Origin: a virus
Reading direction: 5' to 3' (one strand)
Virus record (IMG/VR): IMGVR_UViG_3300014913_000007
Location: 32,001-96,000 of that record
Length of the DNA: 64,000 nt
Of this stretch, positions 1,092 to 57,794 are shown piece by piece. Position numbers and translations under genes: made by a program. The number at the start of each line of letters is the position of its first letter. The stretch's first letter is position 1. The notes below the pieces were generated by a model. The model made no database searches, had not been told where the DNA came from, and saw only the letters and a list, made by a program, of their open reading frames with translations.

Positions 1092-1119
1092 CTAAAGTTT
1101 TATTATAAAGTGACGATAT
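1092..1119 (+). promoter_or_regulatory. sigma28/FliA-like promoter
   Basis: TAAA-N15-GACGATAT; ATG 7 nt downstream (probably leaderless). Confidence 0.65.
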
Positions 1120-1126
1120 TACTATT

Positions 1127-1426
1127 ATGACAGATTTTACATTTGATGCCTCATATGTCTCTGTACTTCCTGCTAGATGTAAGGATGAAGTCTCAGTAGA
1201 AGTTAGTGGTGCAGACGAAGACGAAATAATGAATCAGATTGATATAGGAAATGCAATAAATCATTACGGAGAGTCAGATATACTTGGTAAAATGGGAGCT
1301 TCTACAGTAGTCTCAGAATCTGATATAGGAGACTTGTTATCTGAAATGGAGACTGGAGACATTCTAGATTATGTAGGTATATCAGAAATAGAAGAATGGT
1401 TAAGAAATAAAGGATTACTAATTTAG
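1127..1426 (+). CDS. small acidic protein with ~9-residue periodicity
   Basis: D/E-rich 99-aa ORF right after the promoter motif. Confidence 0.7.
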   Translation: MTDFTFDASYVSVLPARCKDEVSVEVSGADEDEIMNQIDIGNAINHYGESDILGKMGASTVVSESDIGDLLSEMETGDILDYVGISEIEEWLRNKGLLI

Positions 1427-3945: not shown

Positions 3946-5133
3946 ATGACAGTTTTTAAGTTTAAAAAAGACAATATGAAAGTCCCATGTTTTATATGGC
4001 ACAATATGCGAACTTTTGATAAACAGGCATTGCAGCAAATAATTACTGCATCTAAATTACCTTTCATATTCCATCACACCTGTGTAATGGCTGACGGGCA
4101 CAAAGGGTATTCATTACCTATAGGAGGCGTAGTGGCCTGCTTAGGAGTAGTGTCTCCAGCTATGGTAGGTTTCGACCAAGGATGCGGTATGTTAGCTGTG
4201 AAAACAGGAATAAAGATTACTGAATTGAATAGAGAACTGTTAATTCGAATAAAAAAGTTAATAGAAACCCATGTTCCAGTAGGATTAGGTACTTATAACC
4301 AAACTCCACAGGAGTGGGAGGGATTTAACAATACACCAGATGATGTGGTAATTCAGAAACAACTACAATCTGCACGTTTCCAGTTGGGATCACTTGGATC
4401 GAATAATCACTTTTTAGAGATACAATCAGGTTCTGATGGTTACATTTGGTATATGATTCACTCTGGAAGTAGAAATCTAGGACATAAAGTAGCTACCCAC
4501 TACAACAAACTGGCCTTAAATTTAAATAAAAAATGGCATTCAGATATAAAAAGATTAAAAGGTGATGAACCTATGTCTTTCTTACCAGTAGACACTCAAG
4601 AAGGAGTGGATTTTATAACAGCTCTAGATTTTACATTAAAGTTCGCTCAAGCTAGTAGAGAGAATATGTCTAATAAGATTCAAGGTTGTATTACACAGGT
4701 ACTTAAATGTACATTTGAAAAACCTATAAATATACACCATAACTATGCAGCTCTAGAGAATCATTATGGTAAAAACGTTTGGGTACATCGGAAAGGGGCT
4801 ACTTCTGCTAAGAAAGGGCAATTGGGAATCATACCTGGATCTCAAGGCACTAAATCTTTTATAGTTAGAGGAAAGGGAAGTCAGGAGTCATTCACTTCCT
4901 GTAGTCACGGAGCTGGGAGAATTCTTGGAAGAAAGAAAGCAAAACAAACACTAAAGTTAAATGAAGAGTTGAAATTACTAGAAGATAAGGGAATCTTACA
5001 TTCAATAAAATCCAAGGCTAACTTGGATGAGTCACCTTCCGCTTACAAAGACATAGATATAGTCATGAAAGCGCAAAAAGACTTGGTAGATATAGTTGTA
5101 GAATTATCCCCTTTAGCAGTAGTTAAGGGCTAA
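3946..5133 (+). CDS. rtcB: RtcB family RNA 3'-phosphate/5'-OH ligase
   Basis: DGHKGYSLPIGG, VGFDQGCG, NH, HSGSR, HHNY, HRKGAT, SHGAGR motifs. Confidence 0.95.
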   Translation: MTVFKFKKDNMKVPCFIWHNMRTFDKQALQQIITASKLPFIFHHTCVMADGHKGYSLPIGGVVACLGVVSPAMVGFDQGCGMLAVKTGIKITELNRELLIRIKKLIETHVPVGLGTYNQTPQEWEGFNNTPDDVVIQKQLQSARFQLGSLGSNNHFLEIQSGSDGYIWYMIHSGSRNLGHKVATHYNKLALNLNKKWHSDIKRLKGDEPMSFLPVDTQEGVDFITALDFTLKFAQASRENMSNKIQGCITQVLKCTFEKPINIHHNYAALENHYGKNVWVHRKGATSAKKGQLGIIPGSQGTKSFIVRGKGSQESFTSCSHGAGRILGRKKAKQTLKLNEELKLLEDKGILHSIKSKANLDESPSAYKDIDIVMKAQKDLVDIVVELSPLAVVKG

Positions 5134-5335: not shown

Positions 5336-6040
5336 TTAAGCTAGAGGATCAACTGCTATGTCCATTGCTGCCTCTGTGATAGTTTCTAAAACTCTCATAC
5401 AATTACCAAGCTTTTTAGCTCTTAGACATTCCTCTACTTCTCGTAATTTATTACTGAAGTTTATAAATCCTAAGGTTCCAGTAAATCCTATTAAACTATG
5501 AGTTAACCTTGCTGCTTTATCCCAATTACCTAAATCTACTGCCCTTCTGATTCTATACAGTTCAGTAGGTAAGTCCTCCTTACGAAGGTTTATAAGTTCT
5601 ATAAGTTTTTCAGGTAGATTATCAAGGTCTCCAGAGGTTGCATAGGTACATACTGTAAGATTCTTAGGCTCTACTTCAAGTTGCGGGAAGGCAGTTTTTA
5701 GAACTTCAAATAAATTCTTGTTTTCTAAAGGTTTATTTAGTACACCAGTAAATCCACGCTTTAGGTACTTTTTATTATCCAACTCAGCGGTCCAAGCTAT
5801 TATAGGACTAGTAACTCCTGCTTTTTTAGAGGCTCTTACTACACTTTCACCTGATGCGCCTCCTAATTGTAAGTCTACAAATGCTATGTCAAACTGTTTA
5901 GTAACTAACTGTTCTAATGCTTCTTTTGCGTTATCCACTTCCATTACTAAGGCCCCCATAGCACTTAGACGTTCTTCTAGGACGACCCTATTTACTTCGA
6001 TATCGTCTACTATTAGTACTCTCTTGTCATCTATTCGCAT
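5336..6040 (-). CDS. receiver (REC) plus HPt phosphotransfer protein
   Basis: VLIVDD, FDIAFVD, KP receiver motifs; C-terminal helical domain with HSLIG. Confidence 0.8.
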   Translation of the reverse strand: MRIDDKRVLIVDDIEVNRVVLEERLSAMGALVMEVDNAKEALEQLVTKQFDIAFVDLQLGGASGESVVRASKKAGVTSPIIAWTAELDNKKYLKRGFTGVLNKPLENKNLFEVLKTAFPQLEVEPKNLTVCTYATSGDLDNLPEKLIELINLRKEDLPTELYRIRRAVDLGNWDKAARLTHSLIGFTGTLGFINFSNKLREVEECLRAKKLGNCMRVLETITEAAMDIAVDPLA

Positions 6041-6436: not shown

Positions 6437-7771
6437 ATGGAACTTGAAAAAGTATTAAAATTACCTAATATACTCACCTTAAAAAAGATATTAGGTGTAA
6501 CTGCTGATTTACACCTAGTAGGTGGAGCTGTACGTGACATTCTTCTAGATAGAACCCCTAAAGACTTCGACTTTGCCACAGCTCTAACACCTGATGAAAT
6601 GATTCACATGCTTCAGATCAATTCAATAAGATGGATTCCGGTAGGTATTAGACGAGGTACGCTTGCTATAGTAATTAAGGGCGAAGTGTTTGAAGTTACA
6701 ACTTTTAGAGATCCTAGTCAAGAAACACAATTTACTAGCTCTATTGAAGAAGATCTCCCAGCTAGAGATTTTACAATTAATGCCATAGCTATCTCATTAA
6801 ATACTGGTAAATTAGTGGATCCTTTTAGGGGTGAAGAAGACTTAAAAAATAATGTGCTCAAAGCTGTAGGGAATCCAGAGAGGCGGTTTATGGAAGATCC
6901 TCACAGGATTTTAAGAATGCTACGGTTTGGTATAGGTCAAAATAGAAAAGTTGATCAAAAAACTAAAGTAACCGCCTATAAACTAGCTACATTAGTGGAA
7001 GGAATAAGTATTGAAAGAATAAGAGATGAGTTATCAAAAATACTAATAACCGATAATGCTTCAGAGGCATTTAAAGAACTTCTGGAAATGGGAATTCTTA
7101 ATATGTTCATACCTGAGCTTGTCTCTACTGTAAATATAAAACAAAATAAATGGCACTTATGGGACGTTTTTACACATATATTAAAAGTAGTAGATCTATG
7201 TCCAAAAGATAAGATAACTAGATTAGCAGCACTACTACATGATGTAGGTAAACCTCTATGCATATCTGAAGATGAAAATGGTAGGCACTTCCTGGAACAT
7301 GAGACTGTCAGTGCGAAGCTAGCAGAAGTTGTACTTAAGAGGCTTAAATTTCCAAGCAGGGAGATTGCAGAAGTAGTTACCTTGATACGAGAACACATGC
7401 GACCCATAGAGAACTGTAAGGGAAAAGCTATACGTAAAACTATGGTGAAGGTAGGAGATTTATTTCCAAAGTGGTTGGATCATAAGAAAGCTGACAAACT
7501 TGGTGGAATTAAAGGTTTAGATCCTGAAGCATTTGAAGTAGAGTGGAATGCGTTTTTAGCTAAAGTTACCCAAGAGCAGGAGAGGAAGCAAACTAGTAAG
7601 TTTGATAGTCTGGAAATATCTGGTAGAGATATTATGGCATTAGGAGTAGCTCAGGGACCTAATGTAGGAATTATCCTTTCAAAGCTGCAAGAGATAGTTA
7701 TAGATGATCCAGATTTTAATCAAAGAAGAGTGTTGATAGTCTTAGCTAGGAGAATTATCAATGGTCAGTAA
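6437..7771 (+). CDS. cca: tRNA nucleotidyltransferase (CCA-adding family) with HD domain
   Basis: VGGAVRD, DFD, RDFTINA, EDPHRILR, ERI, LLHDVGKP. Confidence 0.9.
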   Translation: MELEKVLKLPNILTLKKILGVTADLHLVGGAVRDILLDRTPKDFDFATALTPDEMIHMLQINSIRWIPVGIRRGTLAIVIKGEVFEVTTFRDPSQETQFTSSIEEDLPARDFTINAIAISLNTGKLVDPFRGEEDLKNNVLKAVGNPERRFMEDPHRILRMLRFGIGQNRKVDQKTKVTAYKLATLVEGISIERIRDELSKILITDNASEAFKELLEMGILNMFIPELVSTVNIKQNKWHLWDVFTHILKVVDLCPKDKITRLAALLHDVGKPLCISEDENGRHFLEHETVSAKLAEVVLKRLKFPSREIAEVVTLIREHMRPIENCKGKAIRKTMVKVGDLFPKWLDHKKADKLGGIKGLDPEAFEVEWNAFLAKVTQEQERKQTSKFDSLEISGRDIMALGVAQGPNVGIILSKLQEIVIDDPDFNQRRVLIVLARRIINGQ

Positions 7772-8651
7772 TATAAAGTTACTCCACGATAAAAAGTTAA
7801 TTACTCCTCCTAAATTCTTAGTAAAGAACGTACATTATGAAACTATTATAGGATCTATGGCTTATGGAGTGAATAAGGACGATTCTGATTATGATGTTTA
7901 CGGTATATGTATACCTCCTAAGGATATAGTGTTCCCGCATTTACAGGGAATTATACCAGAATTTGATGACTCTTATATCAAATTCGATCAGTGGCAAGAA
8001 CATCATATAATTGATGACAGTACTTCTAGGGAGTATGATTTTACAGTTTATAATGTGGTGAAGTTTTTCAAACTTGCCTCAAAATGTGTACCAAACATAG
8101 TTGATTCTCTTTTCACTCCTACTAACTGTGTATTACATCTGAGTAGGGTAGGTAATATAATCAGGGAGGATAGAAAACTATTTCTATGTAAGAAGATCTA
8201 TCATTCATACAGTGGATACGCATATCAGCAGTTGAGTAAGGCTAAAAAAGGTTCTAATAAAAGCAATCCTAAAAGGAAAAAAAGTATAGAAACTTATGGA
8301 TATGACGCAAAATTCTGCTATCATATTATTAGATTGGTAAACCAGGCAGAACAAATGTTAGTAGAGGGAGATTTAGATCTTCAGGCTAGTAGAAAGCAAT
8401 TAATGTCTGTAAGGAATGGAGAGTGGACTTTCGAACAAATAGAAGATTACTTTGAAAGTATTAGAATTAAGCTTTCTAACTTATATCAAACTTCTAATGC
8501 TTTGCCTGAAAAGATACAAAAAACTAAAATTAAAAATCTCCTATTAAAAGTTCTTGAAGAGAATTATGGATCAATAGATCAATGTGTTAAGATTTTAGAC
8601 AAAGATACTACTATTTTAAATCAAATACAAGAATTACTAAAAGGTAGGTAA
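7761..8651 (+). CDS. RlaP-like (pol-beta fold) nucleotidyltransferase
   Basis: GSMAYG..DSDYD motif; GYDAKFCYHIIRL. Confidence 0.8.
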   Translation: MVSNIKLLHDKKLITPPKFLVKNVHYETIIGSMAYGVNKDDSDYDVYGICIPPKDIVFPHLQGIIPEFDDSYIKFDQWQEHHIIDDSTSREYDFTVYNVVKFFKLASKCVPNIVDSLFTPTNCVLHLSRVGNIIREDRKLFLCKKIYHSYSGYAYQQLSKAKKGSNKSNPKRKKSIETYGYDAKFCYHIIRLVNQAEQMLVEGDLDLQASRKQLMSVRNGEWTFEQIEDYFESIRIKLSNLYQTSNALPEKIQKTKIKNLLLKVLEENYGSIDQCVKILDKDTTILNQIQELLKGR

Positions 8652-9679: not shown

Positions 9680-9943
9680 ACTTCAAAACAAGTCCTTAAA
9701 CCATTATTAAGTGTCTTAATTGGTCTAGATTTAATAACTCTAGAAATTCTAAATATAGCCTTATTGCCTCCACCTAATTTGATCTGTATTACTTTTCCAG
9801 GTAAAAACTTACTGGGTGTGGCTGTATTGAATAGGATTCTCTCTCCGCTTAGATTGCAAATAATTCTTTCTAACATAAATCCTCCTTACTTAAGTATCTA
9901 CTTAAATTATTATAGACTTTTTCAACTTTTACGTCAATAGCTC

Positions 9944-9972
9944 TTGCTATATTAATAAAAAAATGCTATTCT
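9944..9972 (+). promoter_or_regulatory. sigma70-like promoter for the S2 gene
   Basis: TTGCTA-N17-TATTCT with TG extension. Confidence 0.5.
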
Positions 9973-10023
9973 TAATAAGAATTAATTTTAACACTAAAAT
10001 AACCATGTGCAGGAAATTTAAAA

Positions 10024-10908
10024 ATGATTAATACTAACGCAGATACCTTTGAAACTACTAAAAAAGTAAACAAAAAAGCTCTTAGAAGAAAAGAAAGAGA
10101 AAGAAGACAAGCAGAAAAAAGAGCAAAAGAGAATTTGGTCTATAAACGTATCAGTATTAAAACTATGCTAGAAAATGGTGCCCATTTCGGTCATGACAAG
10201 CAGTATTGGAATCCAAAAATGGCAGTAAACCTGTACGGAACTCGAAATGATGTACATGTTATTAATCTTAGAAGAACATTAGAACTTTGGGCGAGGGTGG
10301 ATGAGTTGATTACTAAGGAAACCGCAAAAGGTAAAACTATTTTATTTGTAGGTACTAAGCAAGCAGCCCGTGATATAGTCCAAAAAGAAGCTGAAAGATG
10401 TGGGTTTTTCTACATGACACACAAATGGCCTGGAGGAGTACTTACTAACTTTAACACTATTAGAAGCTCTATTAAACGAATGGTGGACTTAGAAAAGTTT
10501 ATAAAAAAGGTAGAATCACCAAAATCAAGAATTAAAATAGGTAAAAAAGAACTACTATTTAAACATAGAGAGCTAGAAAAGTTGCAAAAAGTGTTTGACG
10601 GTGTACGAGAAATGAAGGAACTTCCTGATATGGTATTCGTTGTAGATGCCATAGAAGATCGTATTGCTATCACCGAAGCAAGAAAACTCGCTATTCCAGT
10701 AATAGGTTTGGCAGATTCTAATGTGGACCCAAGCCTGTTAGATTATCCAATTCCTGCTAATGATGATGCACGAGGAACAATAAACCTCTTCGTGTCCAAC
10801 GTTGCTGAATCTGCACTAACTGGAAGAAGGATGTACCAAGAAAAGATGGATAAAATAGCCATTGAAAATGCAGAAAAAGCAGAAAACATTATTAAAAACT
10901 TAGAATAG
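10024..10908 (+). CDS. rpsB: 30S ribosomal protein S2 (uS2) with basic N-terminal extension
   Basis: GAHFGH, WNPKM, LFVGTK, WPGGVLTNF, LPD, EARKLAIPVIGLADSNVDP, PANDD. Confidence 0.95.
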   Translation: MINTNADTFETTKKVNKKALRRKERERRQAEKRAKENLVYKRISIKTMLENGAHFGHDKQYWNPKMAVNLYGTRNDVHVINLRRTLELWARVDELITKETAKGKTILFVGTKQAARDIVQKEAERCGFFYMTHKWPGGVLTNFNTIRSSIKRMVDLEKFIKKVESPKSRIKIGKKELLFKHRELEKLQKVFDGVREMKELPDMVFVVDAIEDRIAITEARKLAIPVIGLADSNVDPSLLDYPIPANDDARGTINLFVSNVAESALTGRRMYQEKMDKIAIENAEKAENIIKNLE

Positions 10909-10977: not shown

Positions 10978-11005
10978 CTAAAGTTTTCCAAGATTCTGTC
11001 GATAA
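10978..11005 (+). promoter_or_regulatory. sigma28/FliA-like promoter
   Basis: TAAA-N15-GTCGATAA. Confidence 0.7.
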
Positions 11006-11863: not shown

Positions 11864-13450
11864 ATGAAACACATTAAAGATAAGTGTATATCAATATTAA
11901 ATAAATTTAAGGGCAACCCAAATGTAAACTTCAATCCCTTAGACTTTACTCCCAATCCAATTATAGATATTGATTTAAAAGGTAACATTATATATTTGAA
12001 TCCAAACATACAAGAACTATTTCCATCACTATCGCAAGAATCTTTAAGTCATCCATACTTAGAGGATATAGTGAAATGGTTAAGAATGGTACAAAATGAT
12101 ATGTATGCAAAACCACACACTAAATCATGGTTTAGAGAAGTGAAGGTTGATAGTCAATATTATGAACAAGTATTTCAAAAAACACAGAAATCAGGAATAA
12201 CTAGAATATATGGAACCAATATAAGTAAAAAAGTAAATAAGCTTAACAAACTGACTGAGGAAAGGAACCAAGCAAACGAATTAACTAAGTTAAAAAGTGA
12301 GTTCATAGCTAATATGAGTCATGAAATTAGAACTCCTATGAGTGGTATTATAGGAATTGCCGACATTCTACTTGAAACAGATCTAACAAAAAGTCAAAAT
12401 AGTTACTTAGCAATGCTAAAAGACTCTTCTAAACATCTTTTATTTATACTTAATGATTTGCTGGATCTCTCAAAAGCAGAAACTGGCAAATTGGAGGTTC
12501 TAAAAGAAAAATTTAACTTTAATAAATCTATCGGACACTTGGTAGCTCAATTTAAAGTTACTGCTGAGGAAAAAAATCTACAATTTGAGACAACTATAGA
12601 CTCGAATATACCTAAAGAATTGGTTGGTGATTCTGTAAGACTTACACAGATACTGATTAACTTGTTAGGTAATGCTTTTAAGTTCACTCCTGAGAGTGGA
12701 AGTGTATTATTAGAAGTATTGATAGAAAAAGAATTAAAAGATTCAATAATTCTTCAATTTAAAGTACAAGACTCCGGTATTGGAATACCCCTAAATAAAC
12801 AAAAAGATATACTAAAAGCATTTATTCAAGCAGACAGTTCAGTTACCAAGAAATATGGAGGTACTGGATTAGGATTAGCTATTACTAGTTCCCTGTTGGA
12901 GTTAATGGATTCTAGCCTAAAATTAGTAAGTACTGAAGGTAACGGATCAACTTTTTCCTTCTCACTCAAAGTATTGAAACCTGAAAAAAAAGATAAGGAA
13001 GTACCAGTAAATAATGAAGACTTGAAAAAAATACTAAATAAAGCAAAAACGGTTAAAAATACATATGACATATTGATTGTGGAAGATGATGAAGTTAATA
13101 AAAAGATAGCAAACTATGTCCTCGCAGAGGCAGGACATACAGTTAAAACTGCATCAAATGGTTTGGAGTGCATGGAATTAGTAAAGAAACATGTATTTGA
13201 CTTAATACTGATGGACTGTCAAATGCCTGAAATGGACGGATTTGAAGCTGTAACTGCAATACGTCAAAGGGAACGTATACTAGGTGTAAGAGTACCTATT
13301 ATAGCCCTTACAGCCCTTGCTATGAAAGATGATAAAGACAAATGCCTTGAAGTGGGTATGGATGTATATATTAGAAAGCCATTCGAAAAGGTTAAGCTAC
13401 TTAAGATGATAGAAAAATTAATTGAAAAATCTAGAAAAATTGACAAATAG
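11864..13450 (+). CDS. cytoplasmic hybrid histidine kinase (PAS-HisKA-HATPase-REC)
   Basis: ANMSHEIRTP H-box, NLLGNAFKFT, DSGIG, GGTGLGL, receiver DCQMPEMDG. Confidence 0.95.
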   Translation: MKHIKDKCISILNKFKGNPNVNFNPLDFTPNPIIDIDLKGNIIYLNPNIQELFPSLSQESLSHPYLEDIVKWLRMVQNDMYAKPHTKSWFREVKVDSQYYEQVFQKTQKSGITRIYGTNISKKVNKLNKLTEERNQANELTKLKSEFIANMSHEIRTPMSGIIGIADILLETDLTKSQNSYLAMLKDSSKHLLFILNDLLDLSKAETGKLEVLKEKFNFNKSIGHLVAQFKVTAEEKNLQFETTIDSNIPKELVGDSVRLTQILINLLGNAFKFTPESGSVLLEVLIEKELKDSIILQFKVQDSGIGIPLNKQKDILKAFIQADSSVTKKYGGTGLGLAITSSLLELMDSSLKLVSTEGNGSTFSFSLKVLKPEKKDKEVPVNNEDLKKILNKAKTVKNTYDILIVEDDEVNKKIANYVLAEAGHTVKTASNGLECMELVKKHVFDLILMDCQMPEMDGFEAVTAIRQRERILGVRVPIIALTALAMKDDKDKCLEVGMDVYIRKPFEKVKLLKMIEKLIEKSRKIDK

Positions 13451-13501: not shown

Positions 13502-14650
13502 ATGTCCAACTTTTCAGCGCCCGTAGTAGAATTCACTATTGAAAAACACCCCAATGCCGACTTACTCTCTATAGCACACGTAGAAGGATGGCAATGTATT
13601 GTAAAGACTGCAGATTTTAAAAATGAAACATTAGGTGTATATGTACCCTTAGACGCTGTAGCAGATAAGGATCATCCTCTACTTGACTTCATGAACGGAA
13701 AGAAGGTAAAAACTATAAAGCTTAGAAAAGTAATCTCTCAAGGTATCTTACTTCCATTGTCCACTGTGGAAAAGTTCGTAAGAAGTAAGGGGTACCAGGA
13801 GACCCTCCAGGTAGGAGATGATTTACATACACTTCTAGAGCTTAAAAAGTGGGAGCCTGTATTTAAGCCTCAAGGACTAAATGTCTCTGGTGGTAGTGAG
13901 GCTTACCTAGAATCTCCTGGATGGATGGGTAAGTATACTGACATAGAAAATTGGAATAATCACCCTAATACAATAAAAGAGGGAGAAATAGTGAGTATTA
14001 CCGAAAAGTTACACGGATCCAGTGCAAGATACGGAATCGTGGATGGTGAATTCTACGTAGGTTCTAGGAATAGAATTTTAAGGTTAGATCCATACATCTC
14101 AAGAATGGATCAACGTAAATGGGATTCACGACCTTTCTTTCAAAGATTCAAGGATTTTATATTGAGAAAGAAAGTTAAACTTACTACACCTAGGGAAACA
14201 GTCTGGACTAAGATAGCTAGAAAACAAGGAATACGTAGTAAACTAAGGTATTTATCCTTTAACTTTGCGGAAGGTGGTAATGTAGCTATTTACGGTGAAA
14301 TAGTTGGTCCTGGGGTACAGGATCTTGAATACGGACTAGAGGAAGTAGATCTATACCTTTACGATATAAGAATTGAAGGTAGGAGTGGAGATAAATACAT
14401 AAGTCCTCCAGAGTTTAGGGAAATGGCAGGTAATATCAAGCTAAAAACTGTACCACTATTGAAGGAAGGCCCTTTCGAATTAGCTGATTTGGAGCTTAGG
14501 AAGGGTAAAGACACTATTAATACTAAGCATGTGCGAGAAGGTATCGTTATAGAGCCTACAAAGCTTCAGTTTGACAAGGGATTAGGTAGGGTAATACTTA
14601 AGAGGGTATCAGAAAATTACCTTCTTAGAAAGAATGGGACTGACTATTAA
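13502..14650 (+). CDS. RNA ligase, DRB0094/Rnl5 family
   Basis: HPNADLL OB-like N-terminus, TEKLHG (motif I), YGE, REGIV, terminal K. Confidence 0.9.
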   Translation: MSNFSAPVVEFTIEKHPNADLLSIAHVEGWQCIVKTADFKNETLGVYVPLDAVADKDHPLLDFMNGKKVKTIKLRKVISQGILLPLSTVEKFVRSKGYQETLQVGDDLHTLLELKKWEPVFKPQGLNVSGGSEAYLESPGWMGKYTDIENWNNHPNTIKEGEIVSITEKLHGSSARYGIVDGEFYVGSRNRILRLDPYISRMDQRKWDSRPFFQRFKDFILRKKVKLTTPRETVWTKIARKQGIRSKLRYLSFNFAEGGNVAIYGEIVGPGVQDLEYGLEEVDLYLYDIRIEGRSGDKYISPPEFREMAGNIKLKTVPLLKEGPFELADLELRKGKDTINTKHVREGIVIEPTKLQFDKGLGRVILKRVSENYLLRKNGTDY

Positions 14651-15390: not shown

Positions 15391-16488
15391 GTGATCAAAA
15401 CAGATACTATAACTAAAACACCTAAAAAGTCAAAAAAATCAACTACTAAAACAAAAAGCAAAACAAAACCAACTAAAAAAGTAACTAAATCTACTAAGAA
15501 AACTGATTATAAATTTGTAAATTACTTTCAATCAGAACCTCAACTAGACGAAATAACACATAAATCTGACCCAGAAGATATCCTTAATGCTTATGAAAGA
15601 ATTATATGGGTTACAGCTAAAAAACACTACAAAATGGGAAGAACATCTACCGAACTAGAGGATTTAATCGCTCAAGGTCAATTAGGTGTGTGTGAAGCTA
15701 TAAAAAGATACAAAAACCCAAACACTAGACCAAGATATAAATTTCACATGCTATGTTTATATAATATACGTGATTATATCTTTAAGTATTGTATCCGTAA
15801 TGTAAATCAATTAAAAACTCCTGTTTACATTCAAAGAGAACTAATGCATGTAGCTCAAATATTTCAATTAATGAATAACCAAACAGTGGCAGAAGCTATC
15901 TTAAAGAGAGAAGGTCCGTCTACTGAAAGTGAAATAATAGCATTCATCTATGATGAAGATGAAAGATTGCCTTTAAAATCAAAAACTTTTATAAAGAAGC
16001 AGATTAATAAAAAAGTAAATAAAAAAGAATTCGAACAAATATATAATGGAATTATAAGTCATGAATTAGGAAGTAGACACTCCTATGTAAAAAATAATTT
16101 AAGTGATGTTGGGAAAATACTACATATTAAAGAAAAAATTTGGTACACTTTTAAAAGTAATAATATGAAATATGAAAGAGGAATTAAACTTATCCTCTCT
16201 GCTAAACAATCTCAAGACTCATTAGATGCTGCAATACACTCACCCATACCAAAGGAAGTAATAGAACAAAACGTAGCACAAAAACAATTAATAGATCATG
16301 GATCTAAGATATGTGGTAAATTAAACTTTAGAATACTATTTGAAAATAAGTGCATGGATATGAACTATGCAGAAATATCTAAAACACACAATATTAAAAA
16401 AAACATGGTAACGGATATAATCAAAAAATCTATAAAATTATTGCAAAAAGATCCAGTGTTCCAAGAAATGTTTAAGGAGCTATTTTAA
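15391..16488 (+). CDS. phage RNA polymerase sigma factor (sigma70 family)
   Basis: region-2 EDLIAQGQLGVCEAIKRY; C-terminal HTH MNYAEISKTHNI. Confidence 0.8.
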   Translation: MIKTDTITKTPKKSKKSTTKTKSKTKPTKKVTKSTKKTDYKFVNYFQSEPQLDEITHKSDPEDILNAYERIIWVTAKKHYKMGRTSTELEDLIAQGQLGVCEAIKRYKNPNTRPRYKFHMLCLYNIRDYIFKYCIRNVNQLKTPVYIQRELMHVAQIFQLMNNQTVAEAILKREGPSTESEIIAFIYDEDERLPLKSKTFIKKQINKKVNKKEFEQIYNGIISHELGSRHSYVKNNLSDVGKILHIKEKIWYTFKSNNMKYERGIKLILSAKQSQDSLDAAIHSPIPKEVIEQNVAQKQLIDHGSKICGKLNFRILFENKCMDMNYAEISKTHNIKKNMVTDIIKKSIKLLQKDPVFQEMFKELF

Positions 16489-17529: not shown

Positions 17530-17558
17530 TTAAAGTTATACATAATAAATGTCGATAC
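17530..17558 (+). promoter_or_regulatory. sigma28/FliA-like promoter
   Basis: TAAA-N16-GTCGATAC; ATG 6 nt downstream. Confidence 0.6.
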
Positions 17559-17564
17559 TAACGT

Positions 17565-18536
17565 ATGGACATAATAAAGAACATACAAGTACCGACTGGA
17601 AACATACTTATAGTATCTGGAGATAAAGGAAACTTAGAATTCCTATCTATTGGGGATTACGGAAAAGAAGCCAATTTGAAGTGTGACGCTTTGGGACTAA
17701 CTAGGGAAATAGGTAAGGTCCAACACGTTGAAATGTTACCACTATCTGAAAAGTGGGTAATAACTGTGTCAACTCAATATGGTTGCTCGATGAACTGTAC
17801 ATTTTGTGATGTACCTAAGGTTGGTCCTGGTATAAATGTGACTCTCGATGATCTTATCCAACAAATATCACTAGGTTTAGGGCTACATCCTGAAGTGAAA
17901 AGTGGGAAAAGATTGAACGTTCACTATGCCAGGATGGGGGAACCTACCTTTAATCCTGAAGTTCTAAGATCAGCCTATGCATTACAACTATTACTAAAGG
18001 ATTTTGATACTGTTCACCCAGTTGTATCCACTATGATGCCCAAAAATAATAAATTCTTAAAGAAATTTCTAAATGAGTGGATGTATATAAAGAATGAAAT
18101 TTTTCAGGGGGAGGCTGGCCTACAGTTGAGTTTAAATAGTACCTGTGAGCAAGAAAGAAAACTAATGTTCTCTGGTAATTCTTTAAGTCTATCAGATATT
18201 TCAGATGTAGTTTCAGCTTATAGACCTAAAGGTAGAAAGATTACACTAAATTTTGCTGTTGCAGACTACACTATAGATCCGAGTGTACTATTGAAATATT
18301 TTGATCCTAAATACTTTATAATAAAACTTACACCTATGCATAAAACTCATACTGCCTTAAAGAACAGTATAAAAACTAATGGAGATTACACAACTTTTTA
18401 TCCATATAAACAACACGAAAAAACACTTAAGTCTGTTGGATATGATGTATTAGTATTTATAGCATCTGTAGAAGAGGACCTAGGTAGAATAACTTGTGGT
18501 AATGCTATACTATCAGGATCTACTCCAGATTACTAA
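17565..18536 (+). CDS. RlmN/Cfr-like radical SAM protein
   Basis: STQYGCSMNCTFC, MGEP, LQLSLNS, C-terminal CGN. Confidence 0.8.
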   Translation: MDIIKNIQVPTGNILIVSGDKGNLEFLSIGDYGKEANLKCDALGLTREIGKVQHVEMLPLSEKWVITVSTQYGCSMNCTFCDVPKVGPGINVTLDDLIQQISLGLGLHPEVKSGKRLNVHYARMGEPTFNPEVLRSAYALQLLLKDFDTVHPVVSTMMPKNNKFLKKFLNEWMYIKNEIFQGEAGLQLSLNSTCEQERKLMFSGNSLSLSDISDVVSAYRPKGRKITLNFAVADYTIDPSVLLKYFDPKYFIIKLTPMHKTHTALKNSIKTNGDYTTFYPYKQHEKTLKSVGYDVLVFIASVEEDLGRITCGNAILSGSTPDY

Positions 18537-21223: not shown

Positions 21224-21251
21224 CTAAAGTTATTTAAAAATATGCCGATAT
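21224..21251 (+). promoter_or_regulatory. sigma28/FliA-like promoter
   Basis: TAAA-N15-GCCGATAT, near consensus; ATG 7 nt downstream. Confidence 0.75.
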
Positions 21252-21258
21252 ACTAGAT

Positions 21259-21684
21259 ATGACAAATTGGGATGACGAAAAGGAGTGTTTAAAAGCTGTT
21301 AAACGGGATGGATTTGCTTTAAAGTATGTAGAGAATCAAACTCCAGAAATCTGCCTAGAAGCTGTTAAACAATGTGGACAAAGCTTAGAATATGTAAAAA
21401 GCCAAACTCCAGAAATCGGCCTAATTGCTGTTAAAGAAAATGGATGGGCCTTAGAATATGTAAAAAACCAAACTCCAGAAATCTGCCTAGAAGCTGTTAA
21501 ACAATGTGGACAAAGCTTAGAATATGTAAAAAGCCAAACTCCAGAAATCTGCTTGGCTGCTGTTAAAGAAAATGAATGGGCTTTACAGCATGTAAATAAG
21601 AAATTTTATACTTCAGATTTAAAAGCATTTATTTTAACTAGTTATGATAAAAAAGTTACTTTAAACTATTTTGAGTTTATATAA
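21259..21684 (+). CDS. DUF4116-like repeat protein
   Basis: 22-aa repeats QTPEICLEAVKQ.G..LEYV; near-exact DNA duplication at 132-nt offset. Confidence 0.8.
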   Translation: MTNWDDEKECLKAVKRDGFALKYVENQTPEICLEAVKQCGQSLEYVKSQTPEIGLIAVKENGWALEYVKNQTPEICLEAVKQCGQSLEYVKSQTPEICLAAVKENEWALQHVNKKFYTSDLKAFILTSYDKKVTLNYFEFI

Positions 21685-56240: not shown

Positions 56241-57794
56241 TTAAGCAATTATTCCTGAGGCTGTTACCCAATTACTACCACTATACCAAATTGGTAATCC
56301 TAAAGTAGTATCAAAGTAGAGTTCTCCTAATAGAGGTAATCCAGGTCTTTCCCCTGTGATACCTGCACTAGGTGTAACTAGAACGTCTAAGGCATCTTTT
56401 ACTGTAGATCCTGATACTGTAGAATCATTAATAGTAATAGAAGCAAAACTCTCTATAAAAGTATCATTTAAAGAAGTGGTATTACTATCATCTAAAGTAT
56501 ACCCATTCTCAATTAAGTAATCTACGGTATTATTATAACAAACATTTTTCTTTAAGTTACATACAGAACCATTCTCAAGTCTTATACCTCTATTACAGTT
56601 ATAACAAGTATTACCGATTATCGCTGCCATTCCATTAGCACTGCCACCGTCTAAAGATATACCCTCACCCGAACACTCAGAAACTAGGTTATCTTGGAGA
56701 ATACTAACACTAGTGACATCATCTATATCTATACCTTCAATGCAGCGTTTGACCCTATTTCTTCTAATTATTGCTGAGTTTCTGTAGCCAGAAATAGTTC
56801 CTAACTGATCTAACTTTATCCCTTCGCCTCCATTACCATCATCACAATTATTAATGTAACAATCTTCTACTAGCATGTTAATTGAATTCTGTAAATGAAG
56901 ACCTCTGCCCAGACTTGCAGAATCAATAAAACAATTCTTTATAAACGCAGAGTTAGAACCTCTTAAACAGATAGCTGCTCCTTCTATCTTATCTGTAGTG
57001 GCCTTATGTAAGTGACAGTCAATAATGGAGATATTACTACTCATTTCAGATATAGAAGGTGCAGTTGCATAATCTGATCCATTATAGTAGGCTAATAGTA
57101 TTGCACTGCCCTGGGCATTTCTTATAGTAATATTGTGAAATATTAAATCATTAGCTTTAGAATGATTGTCTTTAAATGTTATTGCGGAGCCTTTACCATT
57201 CTGGTAGGAGGTAGTGCAATCTTCTAGTATTAAGCTACTCAGTAAGATATCAGCTGCCCCATCTTCTACTTGAATACATTGCTGACCTGTAATAACTGGA
57301 AAATATCCATCTGTTACCTTTACTTTAAATTCTACTCCTGAGGGTATAGTAATTGGACTATAAGTAGCACTTGTCCTAACTTCAAGTACTTGGTCATCAG
57401 TAAGCGAGTTAATTGCCAAATTTAAATCATTTGATCCAGTAGTGGTTAAGATAACGTCTGGTATCTCAAATCTTAGTTCCTCAATGTCTTGTAAAATACT
57501 TGAGTATTCTCCAGCCTCTACTGAAGCTATTAACTGATCTACATATAACTTAGTTGCAGCTTCAGAGTCTGTGGTGGGGTTTGGTAATTGACTAAGTATT
57601 TGATTATTAAAGTCTACAGCATCCTGAGGAGGATATTTGTACCACTCATCTGCTGCAGCTCCAGAACTTGTAGCTCCAGAACTTGTAACTGCCTCTGAAT
57701 CTCGGTATCTACCTCCAACAGCTAATAGTTCCTCTCCTCGCTGAATTACTCTAGATTCAGGTGTTACTTGTGGATCTACTTTATAATTTGACAT
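56241..57794 (-). CDS. MSNYKVDPQV-module protein with right-handed beta-helix (tailspike/depolymerase-like)
   Basis: I.N/GI repeats typical of parallel beta-helix; C-terminal RP..P..GELYFDTTL..W module. Confidence 0.75.
   Translation of the reverse strand: MSNYKVDPQVTPESRVIQRGEELLAVGGRYRDSEAVTSSGATSSGAAADEWYKYPPQDAVDFNNQILSQLPNPTTDSEAATKLYVDQLIASVEAGEYSSILQDIEELRFEIPDVILTTTGSNDLNLAINSLTDDQVLEVRTSATYSPITIPSGVEFKVKVTDGYFPVITGQQCIQVEDGAADILLSSLILEDCTTSYQNGKGSAITFKDNHSKANDLIFHNITIRNAQGSAILLAYYNGSDYATAPSISEMSSNISIIDCHLHKATTDKIEGAAICLRGSNSAFIKNCFIDSASLGRGLHLQNSINMLVEDCYINNCDDGNGGEGIKLDQLGTISGYRNSAIIRRNRVKRCIEGIDIDDVTSVSILQDNLVSECSGEGISLDGGSANGMAAIIGNTCYNCNRGIRLENGSVCNLKKNVCYNNTVDYLIENGYTLDDSNTTSLNDTFIESFASITINDSTVSGSTVKDALDVLVTPSAGITGERPGLPLLGELYFDTTLGLPIWYSGSNWVTASGIIA

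Follow-up and report, generated by a model that had tools for sequence, protein, structure and literature searches.

A full-length uS2 gene in a large viral record, its relatives in other metagenomes and its possible role in the ribosome

The uS2 gene, its product and its promoters

The DNA analyzed here (the window) comprises 64,000 bases, positions 32001-96000 of the IMG/VR virus record IMGVR_UViG_3300014913_000007, which is 153,389 bp long, linear, 78% complete by CheckV and has a GC content of 34%. Its central element is an open reading frame (ORF) of 294 residues on the plus strand, at window positions 10024..10908, which encodes an rpsB-like ribosomal protein uS2. A sequence-only reading of the window had proposed at this locus a full-length uS2 with its own promoter, a basic N-terminal extension of ∼40 residues, phage-like neighbors and no tsf gene downstream. 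It had also called uS2 unusual among phage ribosomal proteins and had pointed to several genes starting a few nucleotides after a -10 box.

The ORF was matched over the whole profile of PF00318 (Ribosomal_S2; profile positions 1-216, residues 48-267) with 249.6 bits against a cut-off of 26.1 (E 2.5e-74), and by TIGR01011 (rpsB_bact) with 262.4 bits against a cut-off of 76.3. The solved chains that matched it best were ribosomal uS2, with that of Pseudomonas aeruginosa at the top (223 bits). An AlphaFold2 model generated from a 60-row alignment had a mean predicted local distance difference test score (pLDDT) of 94.8 and was superposed on ribosome-bound uS2 with VIA at Z ∼33 and a root-mean-square deviation of 1.1-1.6 Å over 221-232 residues. 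The two-domain fold of uS2 is predicted by the model, with an α/β globular domain and a coiled-coil hairpin formed by helices 143-164 and 174-194. The ORF was thereby confirmed as a full-length bacterial-type uS2 with exactly the boundaries first assigned to it.

The conserved core extends over residues 42-268 (10147..10827) and carries the zinc pocket (H57, D231, D247 and D248), Y71, and a glycine, G251, where E. coli has R208. It is flanked by two additions, and residues 1-40 and ∼278-294 were unmatched in solved uS2 chains. The N-terminal extension (codons 1-41, 10024..10146) is family-specific and has a net charge of +8 and a predicted helix at residues 17-37. The C-terminal tail (residues 269-294, 10828..10905) is conserved in family members P0001-P0005 and is predicted to prolong the last helix (residues 250-293). 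N-terminal extensions of 18-41 residues were present in 8/8 members of the family described below, and extensions of at least 20 residues in 0/115 cellular-like hits; the tail beyond the core helix measured 25-74 residues across the family. The extension of the sequence-only reading was therefore found at the length proposed, with a predicted helix, and its basic character held for the two closest members only (+8 in the window, +9 in the next relative), the others being neutral or acidic.

The annotated ATG is the predicted start of the gene. A TTG at codon 38, which would remove the extension, was considered as an alternative start and judged less likely, because in all 8 ORFs the reading frame continues without a stop for 18-41 codons upstream, and the window and its relative L008 have 13 residues in common. 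The proposal that the N-terminal extension mimics the S1 helix was dropped, as Phe9 was unconserved even in the closest relative.

Upstream of uS2 lies a 147-nucleotide (nt) spacer with back-to-back sigma-70-type promoters. The promoter directed at uS2 has an extended -10 element, with TTGCTA (9944-9949), a 17 nt spacing and TGcTATTCT (9964-9972) on the plus strand. It was kept in relatives L008 and L108 while the flanking sequence diverged, which supports the earlier assignment of an own promoter to the gene, although a simple promoter scan did not list it. The divergent promoter (9909..9937, minus strand; TTGACG, 17 nt, TATAAT) matches the consensus at 11/12 positions, has its core in L008 and L108, and faces the leftward genes from 9876 to 8937. 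A Shine-Dalgarno-like AGGA core is located at 10011..10014, 10-13 nt before the uS2 ATG, where L008 has GGGAAAG. Counted from the -10 element, the leader is ∼40 nt long; with the AGGA core, this indicates that uS2 itself is not leaderless. A sigma-28-like promoter for the next gene, which encodes a DUF932 protein, was located after the uS2 stop codon (10979..11004, plus strand), followed by a 43-nt leader with AAGGAG. The same motif follows uS2 in L002, L008 and L108, and in L002 it stands 8 nt from the ATG.

Relatives, gene order and viral status

A collection of 5.8 billion proteins was searched with the window uS2. The nearest proteins were four metagenomic sequences, 71, 62, 50 and 46% identical, followed by a plateau of cellular uS2 at 44-50%. 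The neighborhood of uS2 was kept in five contigs from other metagenomes (L008, L108, L002, L005 and L107). A PQ-loop protein and two small ORFs were retained upstream in L008 and L108, and DUF932, RtcB and three conserved ORFs downstream in L002 and L005; the flanking proteins of these related contigs were 30-66% identical to those of the window phage. Three further members, P0122-P0124, came from a profile search of 1.84 billion cluster representatives; they were on phage-like contigs without tsf. One of these contigs shared with the window phage a small ORF family and the sigma-28-like promoter type described below. The EF_TS profile, for the tsf product elongation factor EF-Ts, had no match in L002-L008, L107, L108, L110 or L111.

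In maximum-likelihood trees the 8 family members (cluster representatives) formed one clade with an approximate likelihood ratio (SH-aLRT) support of 98-99, on a long stem and outside all sampled phyla. The best cellular uS2 among 185,579 species genomes was 47% identical at most. P0125, a long-branch sequence adjacent to the clade, lies in a classic rpsB-tsf-pyrH-frr operon and was for that reason taken to be cellular. The sequence-only reading had named a chimera with host DNA as a finding that would overturn it. Synteny in five independent contigs, a separate clade and an identity of 47% or less to cellular copies instead assign the uS2 gene to the phage.

A scan of IMG/VR with the single protein found nothing further, and an alignment-based scan found 13 other uS2 loci, none from the phage family. 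Eight of them had tsf directly downstream, and those placed in the tree fell inside Bacillota, Aeromonas or Alphaproteobacteria. These loci were assigned to host DNA on the basis of the downstream tsf or of their nesting within host phyla. One more of the 13 is L020 (IMGVR_UViG_3300046449_000372), where an alphaproteobacterial-type uS2 at the contig end adjoins an IS110 transposase, a phage lysozyme and a lambda-like Nu1/gpA terminase. This uS2 is most likely a host rpsB at a prophage border and not a phage gene. Among cultured phages, tblastn gave only uS2 hits of less than 45% identity; several were mislabelled bacterial contigs and many were unannotated records. No PHROGs family matched uS2.

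The gene content of the record agrees with the phage-like neighbors proposed for uS2. Phage-type genes encode PolA, a DnaB-like helicase, a primase, a UvsX-like recombinase, an exonuclease and a ribonucleotide reductase, together with a dUTPase, several HNH and homing endonucleases and glycosyltransferases, and the window carries 23 tRNA genes. The PolA was ∼24% identical to polymerases of cultured phages, and no close relative of the record's DNA polymerase was found in IMG/VR. Within the 153-kb record the uS2 gene was the single uS2-family match, and profile searches for EF-Ts (tsf), S1 and S21 found none anywhere in it. The expected lack of a downstream tsf was thus borne out for the whole record, the DUF932 gene being next to uS2. 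The best-supported reading of these data is that a bacterial rpsB was acquired long ago without tsf and then inherited vertically in large, low-GC, tRNA-rich sediment phages.

Four RNA-repair genes were located within 6 kb of uS2, all on the plus strand. They encode an RtcB RNA ligase (3946..5133; PF01139, E 5e-100), which is also near uS2 in L002, a CCA-adding enzyme or tRNA nucleotidyltransferase (6437..7771; PolyA_pol, PolyA_pol_RNAbd, HD and tRNA_NucTran2_2), the RNA-repair-pathway nucleotidyltransferase RlaP (7761..8651; PF10127, E 2.7e-19) and an RNA ligase with an RNA_ligase domain and a PHA02142 OB fold (13502..14650). This RNA-repair island probably counters tRNA-cleaving host defenses, and the repair enzymes read, together with the tRNA arrays, as a block that keeps translation running.

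Gene starts, S1 contacts and the proposed role

A sigma-28-consensus-like promoter, TAAAG-N14-19-CGATA, was matched 38 times in the record. An ATG followed CGATA at 8 nt in 11 cases, at 7 nt in 2 and at 6 nt in 4 (17/38), and every other spacing from 3 to 15 nt had none or one. The leaderless-type arrangement with the ATG at 8 nt was located at 1093..1129, 17531-17567 and 21225-21261 on the plus strand and at 6075-6038 on the minus strand, and the ATG of the CCA-adding enzyme at 6437 stands 7 nt after a sigma-28-like -10 core. All five starts that the sequence-only reading had listed as close to a -10 box (1127, 6040, 6437, 17565 and 21259) fit this promoter-to-ATG geometry. Under a standard promoter geometry, the first base of the ATG would lie at +1 or +2. 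Other sigma-28-like promoters are followed by leaders of 19-62 nt, often with AGGAG, and a Shine-Dalgarno 4-mer was present at -20 to -5 in 56% of genes, against a background of 15%. With leaderless-type and Shine-Dalgarno-led genes side by side, the phage seems to use both modes of initiation. The sigma-28-like promoter type was also present in the uS2-carrying relatives.

Two further observations concern these promoters. A 365-residue ORF at 15391-16488 recurs in L002 and L005 with 54-62% identity, each time at a distance of a few kb on the downstream side of uS2. It has a weak Sigma70_r2 match (E 9.5e-4, under the cut-off) and could be a sigma factor for the sigma-28-like promoters. Near-identical 40-nt copies of one sigma-28-like promoter with the first codons after it (ATGACA) were located at three positions of the record (G000 13746, 53225, which is window 21225, and 153176). 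Two copies are exact and the third is one base off, and one lies ∼200 nt from the contig end. The copies may belong to paralogous genes or to a long repeat.

Selection on uS2 was estimated between the window and L008 with the NG86 method. The ratio of nonsynonymous to synonymous substitution rates (dN/dS) was 0.07 overall, 0.05 in the core and 0.25 in the N-terminal extension, with dS saturated at ∼3, and the core is under strong purifying selection. The family was then mapped onto E. coli rpsB/uS2, with the S1-S2 contacts taken from PMC4288201. The zinc pocket (E. coli H18, D188, D204 and D205; H57, D231, D247 and D248 here) was kept in 8/8 members, as were the equivalents of His15 and Asn203; Phe16 is Phe or Tyr, with Tyr in three members. 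At the S1-anchoring position 32, where stacking of Phe32 with Phe5 and Phe9 of S1 is essential for S1 binding (PMC4288201), all 8 phage proteins have Tyr (Y71 here), and the sampled bacteria have Phe in 37/39 and Tyr in 2/39. At position 208, where 94% of 341 other sequences have Arg or Lys, each of the 8 phage proteins has Gly, Leu or Thr. Arg208 is the salt-bridge partner of S1 Asp39, and the charge reversal D39K in S1 has only a minor effect on S1 binding (PMC4288201). Since Arg/Lys208 is a conserved trait of bacterial uS2 and not a defining one, membership in that family stands.

A systematic screen gave seven signature positions (19, 38, 95, 97, 169, 202 and 208); the changes include R95K and L97P/V, changes at Q19, E169 and G202, and the loss of R208. 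Three of them, at 19, 202 and 208, lie next to zinc ligands or to contacts with S1 domain 1. The mapping suggests an intact zinc pocket and an intact main anchor for S1, with a remodeled S1 domain-1 contact. Complex prediction of the phage uS2 with residues 1-90 of E. coli S1 gave scores of 0.54, 0.14 and 0.13, with the median under the mark.

We consider it fairly probable that the gene provides a functional, phage-owned uS2 that replaces or supplements host uS2 in the 30S subunit during infection. Host sigma-70 RNA polymerase would transcribe uS2 from its own promoter, and the mRNA, with its leader and Shine-Dalgarno-like core, would be translated. The protein would then take the usual position of uS2, where the head and the body of the 30S subunit meet, replacing or supplementing the host copy, and the ribosomes would stay competent or become tuned to the phage. 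uS2 is a late-assembling, peripheral 30S protein (PMC4371863, PMC10491246, PMC10931766), which fits a published rule: the ribosomal proteins carried by viruses are peripheral and exchangeable, and they become part of ribosomes (Mizuno 2019, PMC6375957). With the main S1 anchor kept, the domain-1 contact remodeled and terminal helices added, the phage protein may alter the seating of S1 and mRNA on the ribosome; the remodeled contact and the added helices are a hint of retuned S1 and mRNA handling.

Several points weigh against a functional subunit of this kind. The long stem branch of the clade and the seven signature substitutions might also reflect an altered role outside the ribosome. A surplus of uS2 in E. 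coli leads to repression of rpsB-tsf and to slower growth (PMC10931766), so that simple supplementation is not the sole possible outcome. The phylogeny, which had been suggested as a check that would also indicate the host, gave the separate phage clade and no host signal that would allow the fit of the protein to host 16S rRNA and S1 to be judged. The sequencing runs with the locus were two sediment DNA runs, one perhaps from the source sample, and included no RNA data set. No capsid, portal or true terminase was recognized among ∼30 large and mid-size ORFs with PHROGs and Pfam, and a critique of PhiMa05 holds that claims of viral ribosomal proteins need a virion module on the record (PMC13623518).

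The last two points bear on whether the gene is strictly a phage gene at all. The record might instead be a non-viral mobile element or an unusual cell fragment, or uS2 might be a neutral passenger derived from a host. The record is a linear fragment, and the PhiMa05 critique shows that such errors happen. Against this stand the phage-like content throughout with one ribosomal protein only, the synteny in five independent contigs and the lack of a cellular copy above 47% identity. Purifying selection and a conserved promoter oppose passenger status, and the missing ∼22% of the genome (∼43 kb, extrapolated from the CheckV value) is roomy enough for a virion module and could hold one. We regard this explanation as very improbable. 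An extraribosomal role would fit the effect of excess uS2 in E. coli. Free phage uS2 would then mimic the autogenous repressor of the host rpsB-tsf mRNA and so shut off synthesis of host uS2 and EF-Ts, or it would act against a uS2-targeting host factor, as decoy or antidote. It would also fit the long, fast-evolving branch, terminal extensions that differ in length and charge among relatives, and the position of uS2 among RNA-repair genes of a counter-defense type. The whole rRNA-binding fold is nevertheless near-identical and the core dN/dS is 0.05, which is more preservation than a small RNA-binding or decoy role needs. To our knowledge, moreover, the rpsB leader element is confined to Gammaproteobacteria, and we know of no defense system directed at uS2. 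Such a role seems to us doubtful, if less so than a non-phage origin.

A further possibility, raised in the sequence-only reading, is that phage uS2 reprograms the ribosome. Once in the 30S subunit it would weaken or reposition S1, and perhaps bS21, and so favor the AUG-starting transcripts from sigma-28-type promoters. The sharp peak at 8 nt among the 17/38 promoters with a close ATG, and the recurrence of the promoter type in relatives, are in keeping with this, as are the three of seven signature changes (19, 202 and 208) at or near the S1 domain-1 and zinc contact and the added terminal segments in all members. Transcribed from a sigma-70 promoter, uS2 could also precede the sigma-28-type genes. 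The aromatic residue essential for S1 is, however, kept as Tyr at position 32, the zinc pocket is intact, and charge reversal at S1 Asp39, to which Arg208 forms its salt bridge, has only a minor effect on S1 binding. Canonical initiation must continue for the 56% of genes that are Shine-Dalgarno-led, the leaderless starts are read from promoter-to-ATG geometry, and the leaderless preference in E. coli arises from the absence of uS2 and not from an extra supply. Leaderless mRNAs are, besides, translated by many bacteria without special ribosomes. The intact anchor, the Shine-Dalgarno-led genes and the E. coli effect of uS2 lack argue in particular against a simple S1-exclusion model, and we think reprogramming unlikely. 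The related idea of a ribosome-specialising subunit, in which the remodeled S1 contact and the extra helices change the geometry of S1, perhaps of bS21, and of the anti-Shine-Dalgarno sequence in favor of phage transcripts, is given a similarly low probability.

The phage uS2 was compared with known systems. Relative to uS2 of E. coli and Pseudomonas aeruginosa (7unr, 7n1p and 4ybb; 4TOI for S2 with the S1 N-terminal domain), the phage protein has the same two-domain fold. Its zinc ligands and His-Phe-Gly-His motif are retained, and the residue that anchors S1 is again aromatic. It differs in its identity of 47% or less, its N- and C-terminal additions, its location in phage contigs and the absence of its tsf partner, which follows uS2 in the cellular rpsB-tsf operon. 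E. coli rpsB temperature-sensitive and rpsB11 mutants, in which uS2 is lost together with S1 and bS21, favor leaderless mRNA (PMC10491246, PMC3653068). The same protein and S1 docking surface are concerned here, in a phage that appears to have many AUG-starting transcripts, but the phage supplies an extra, intact uS2 in which the main S1 anchor is kept.

Phage bS21 and bL12 (PMC6375957, PMC7162821, PMC9723584) are alike in being single ribosomal protein genes of large phages whose products are peripheral and late-binding, with a role in initiation and under purifying selection. Phage bS21 can also have basic N-terminal extensions, proposed to serve competitive binding or the selection of phage mRNA (PMC7162821). 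By comparison, uS2 is ∼4 times larger and is a docking platform for S1, and its family forms a deep phage-specific clade, unlike the repeated recent captures of other viral ribosomal proteins. The record of the 'jumbo cyanophage' PhiMa05 (PMC13157829) resembles the present one in that ribosomal proteins are claimed for a large record with scarce virion genes. It lists six of them, uS2 not included; here a single ribosomal protein is far from its cellular homologues, shows synteny across contigs and is surrounded by phage-type content and not by cellular operons.

uS2 is also missing from the 14 proteins of Mizuno (PMC6375957), from the 13 in the metagenomic table of that study and from the list of S4, S1, S21 and L7/L12 given by Al-Shayeb et al. 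2020 (PMC7162821), and no report of a phage uS2 was found in the searchable full-text literature. These absences, with the separate syntenic clade, uphold the view that uS2 is unusual among viral ribosomal proteins, and within that literature the phage uS2 appears to be new to a known class. Reported viral ribosomal proteins are mostly small, bacteria-specific and loosely bound (bS21, bL12, bL31 and bL33). uS2, in contrast, is universal, essential and ∼26 kDa in size, links the head of the small subunit to its body and provides the docking platform for S1. That a uS2 diverged down to 46% identity is kept under constraint suggests a benefit to the phage from exchanging this component of the host ribosome. 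The phage protein offers a natural variant for probing the contribution of uS2 and its S1 contact to mRNA selection, and the tRNA-repair enzymes, the many tRNAs and the leaderless-looking genes make the phage a promising system for viral control of translation initiation. If the ribosome-specialising reading were true, it would describe a virus-made 'specialised ribosome' around a universal core protein.

Further features of the record

Proteins of 819 and 846 residues had PHROG hits labeled 'terminase'; the label was not accepted for either, because the hits overlap P-loop helicase and PhoH domains. Two giant ORFs, both on the minus strand, encode 2463 residues (L012:9448-16839) and 1777 residues (G000 130223-135556). 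The larger had no Pfam match and no tblastn match among 50,697 phage records. With the adjoining ORFs of 930, 742, 329 and 308 residues, for the second of which an ESM Atlas look-up gave no explanation, they may be unrecognized virion or tail genes. A 517-residue protein at window 56241-57794 (minus strand) has a right-handed beta-helix and a C-terminal 40-residue match to a PHROG annotated as virion structural protein. This candidate tailspike is the sole virion-like signal seen in the record.

A 387-residue ORF (L012:1332-2495, minus strand) was without a PHROG or Pfam match. By ESM Atlas look-up it resembles the beta sliding clamp of DNA polymerase III (feature score 0.95-0.96, template modelling (TM) score ∼0.8), and its nearest clusters are mostly Uroviricota. 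Two proteins of two-component signaling are also encoded, a receiver-Hpt protein at 5336-6040 (minus strand) and, at 11864-13450, a hybrid histidine kinase that includes a receiver domain. The kinase has one metagenomic relative at 57% identity, its other hits being ∼40% identical and spread over many phyla.

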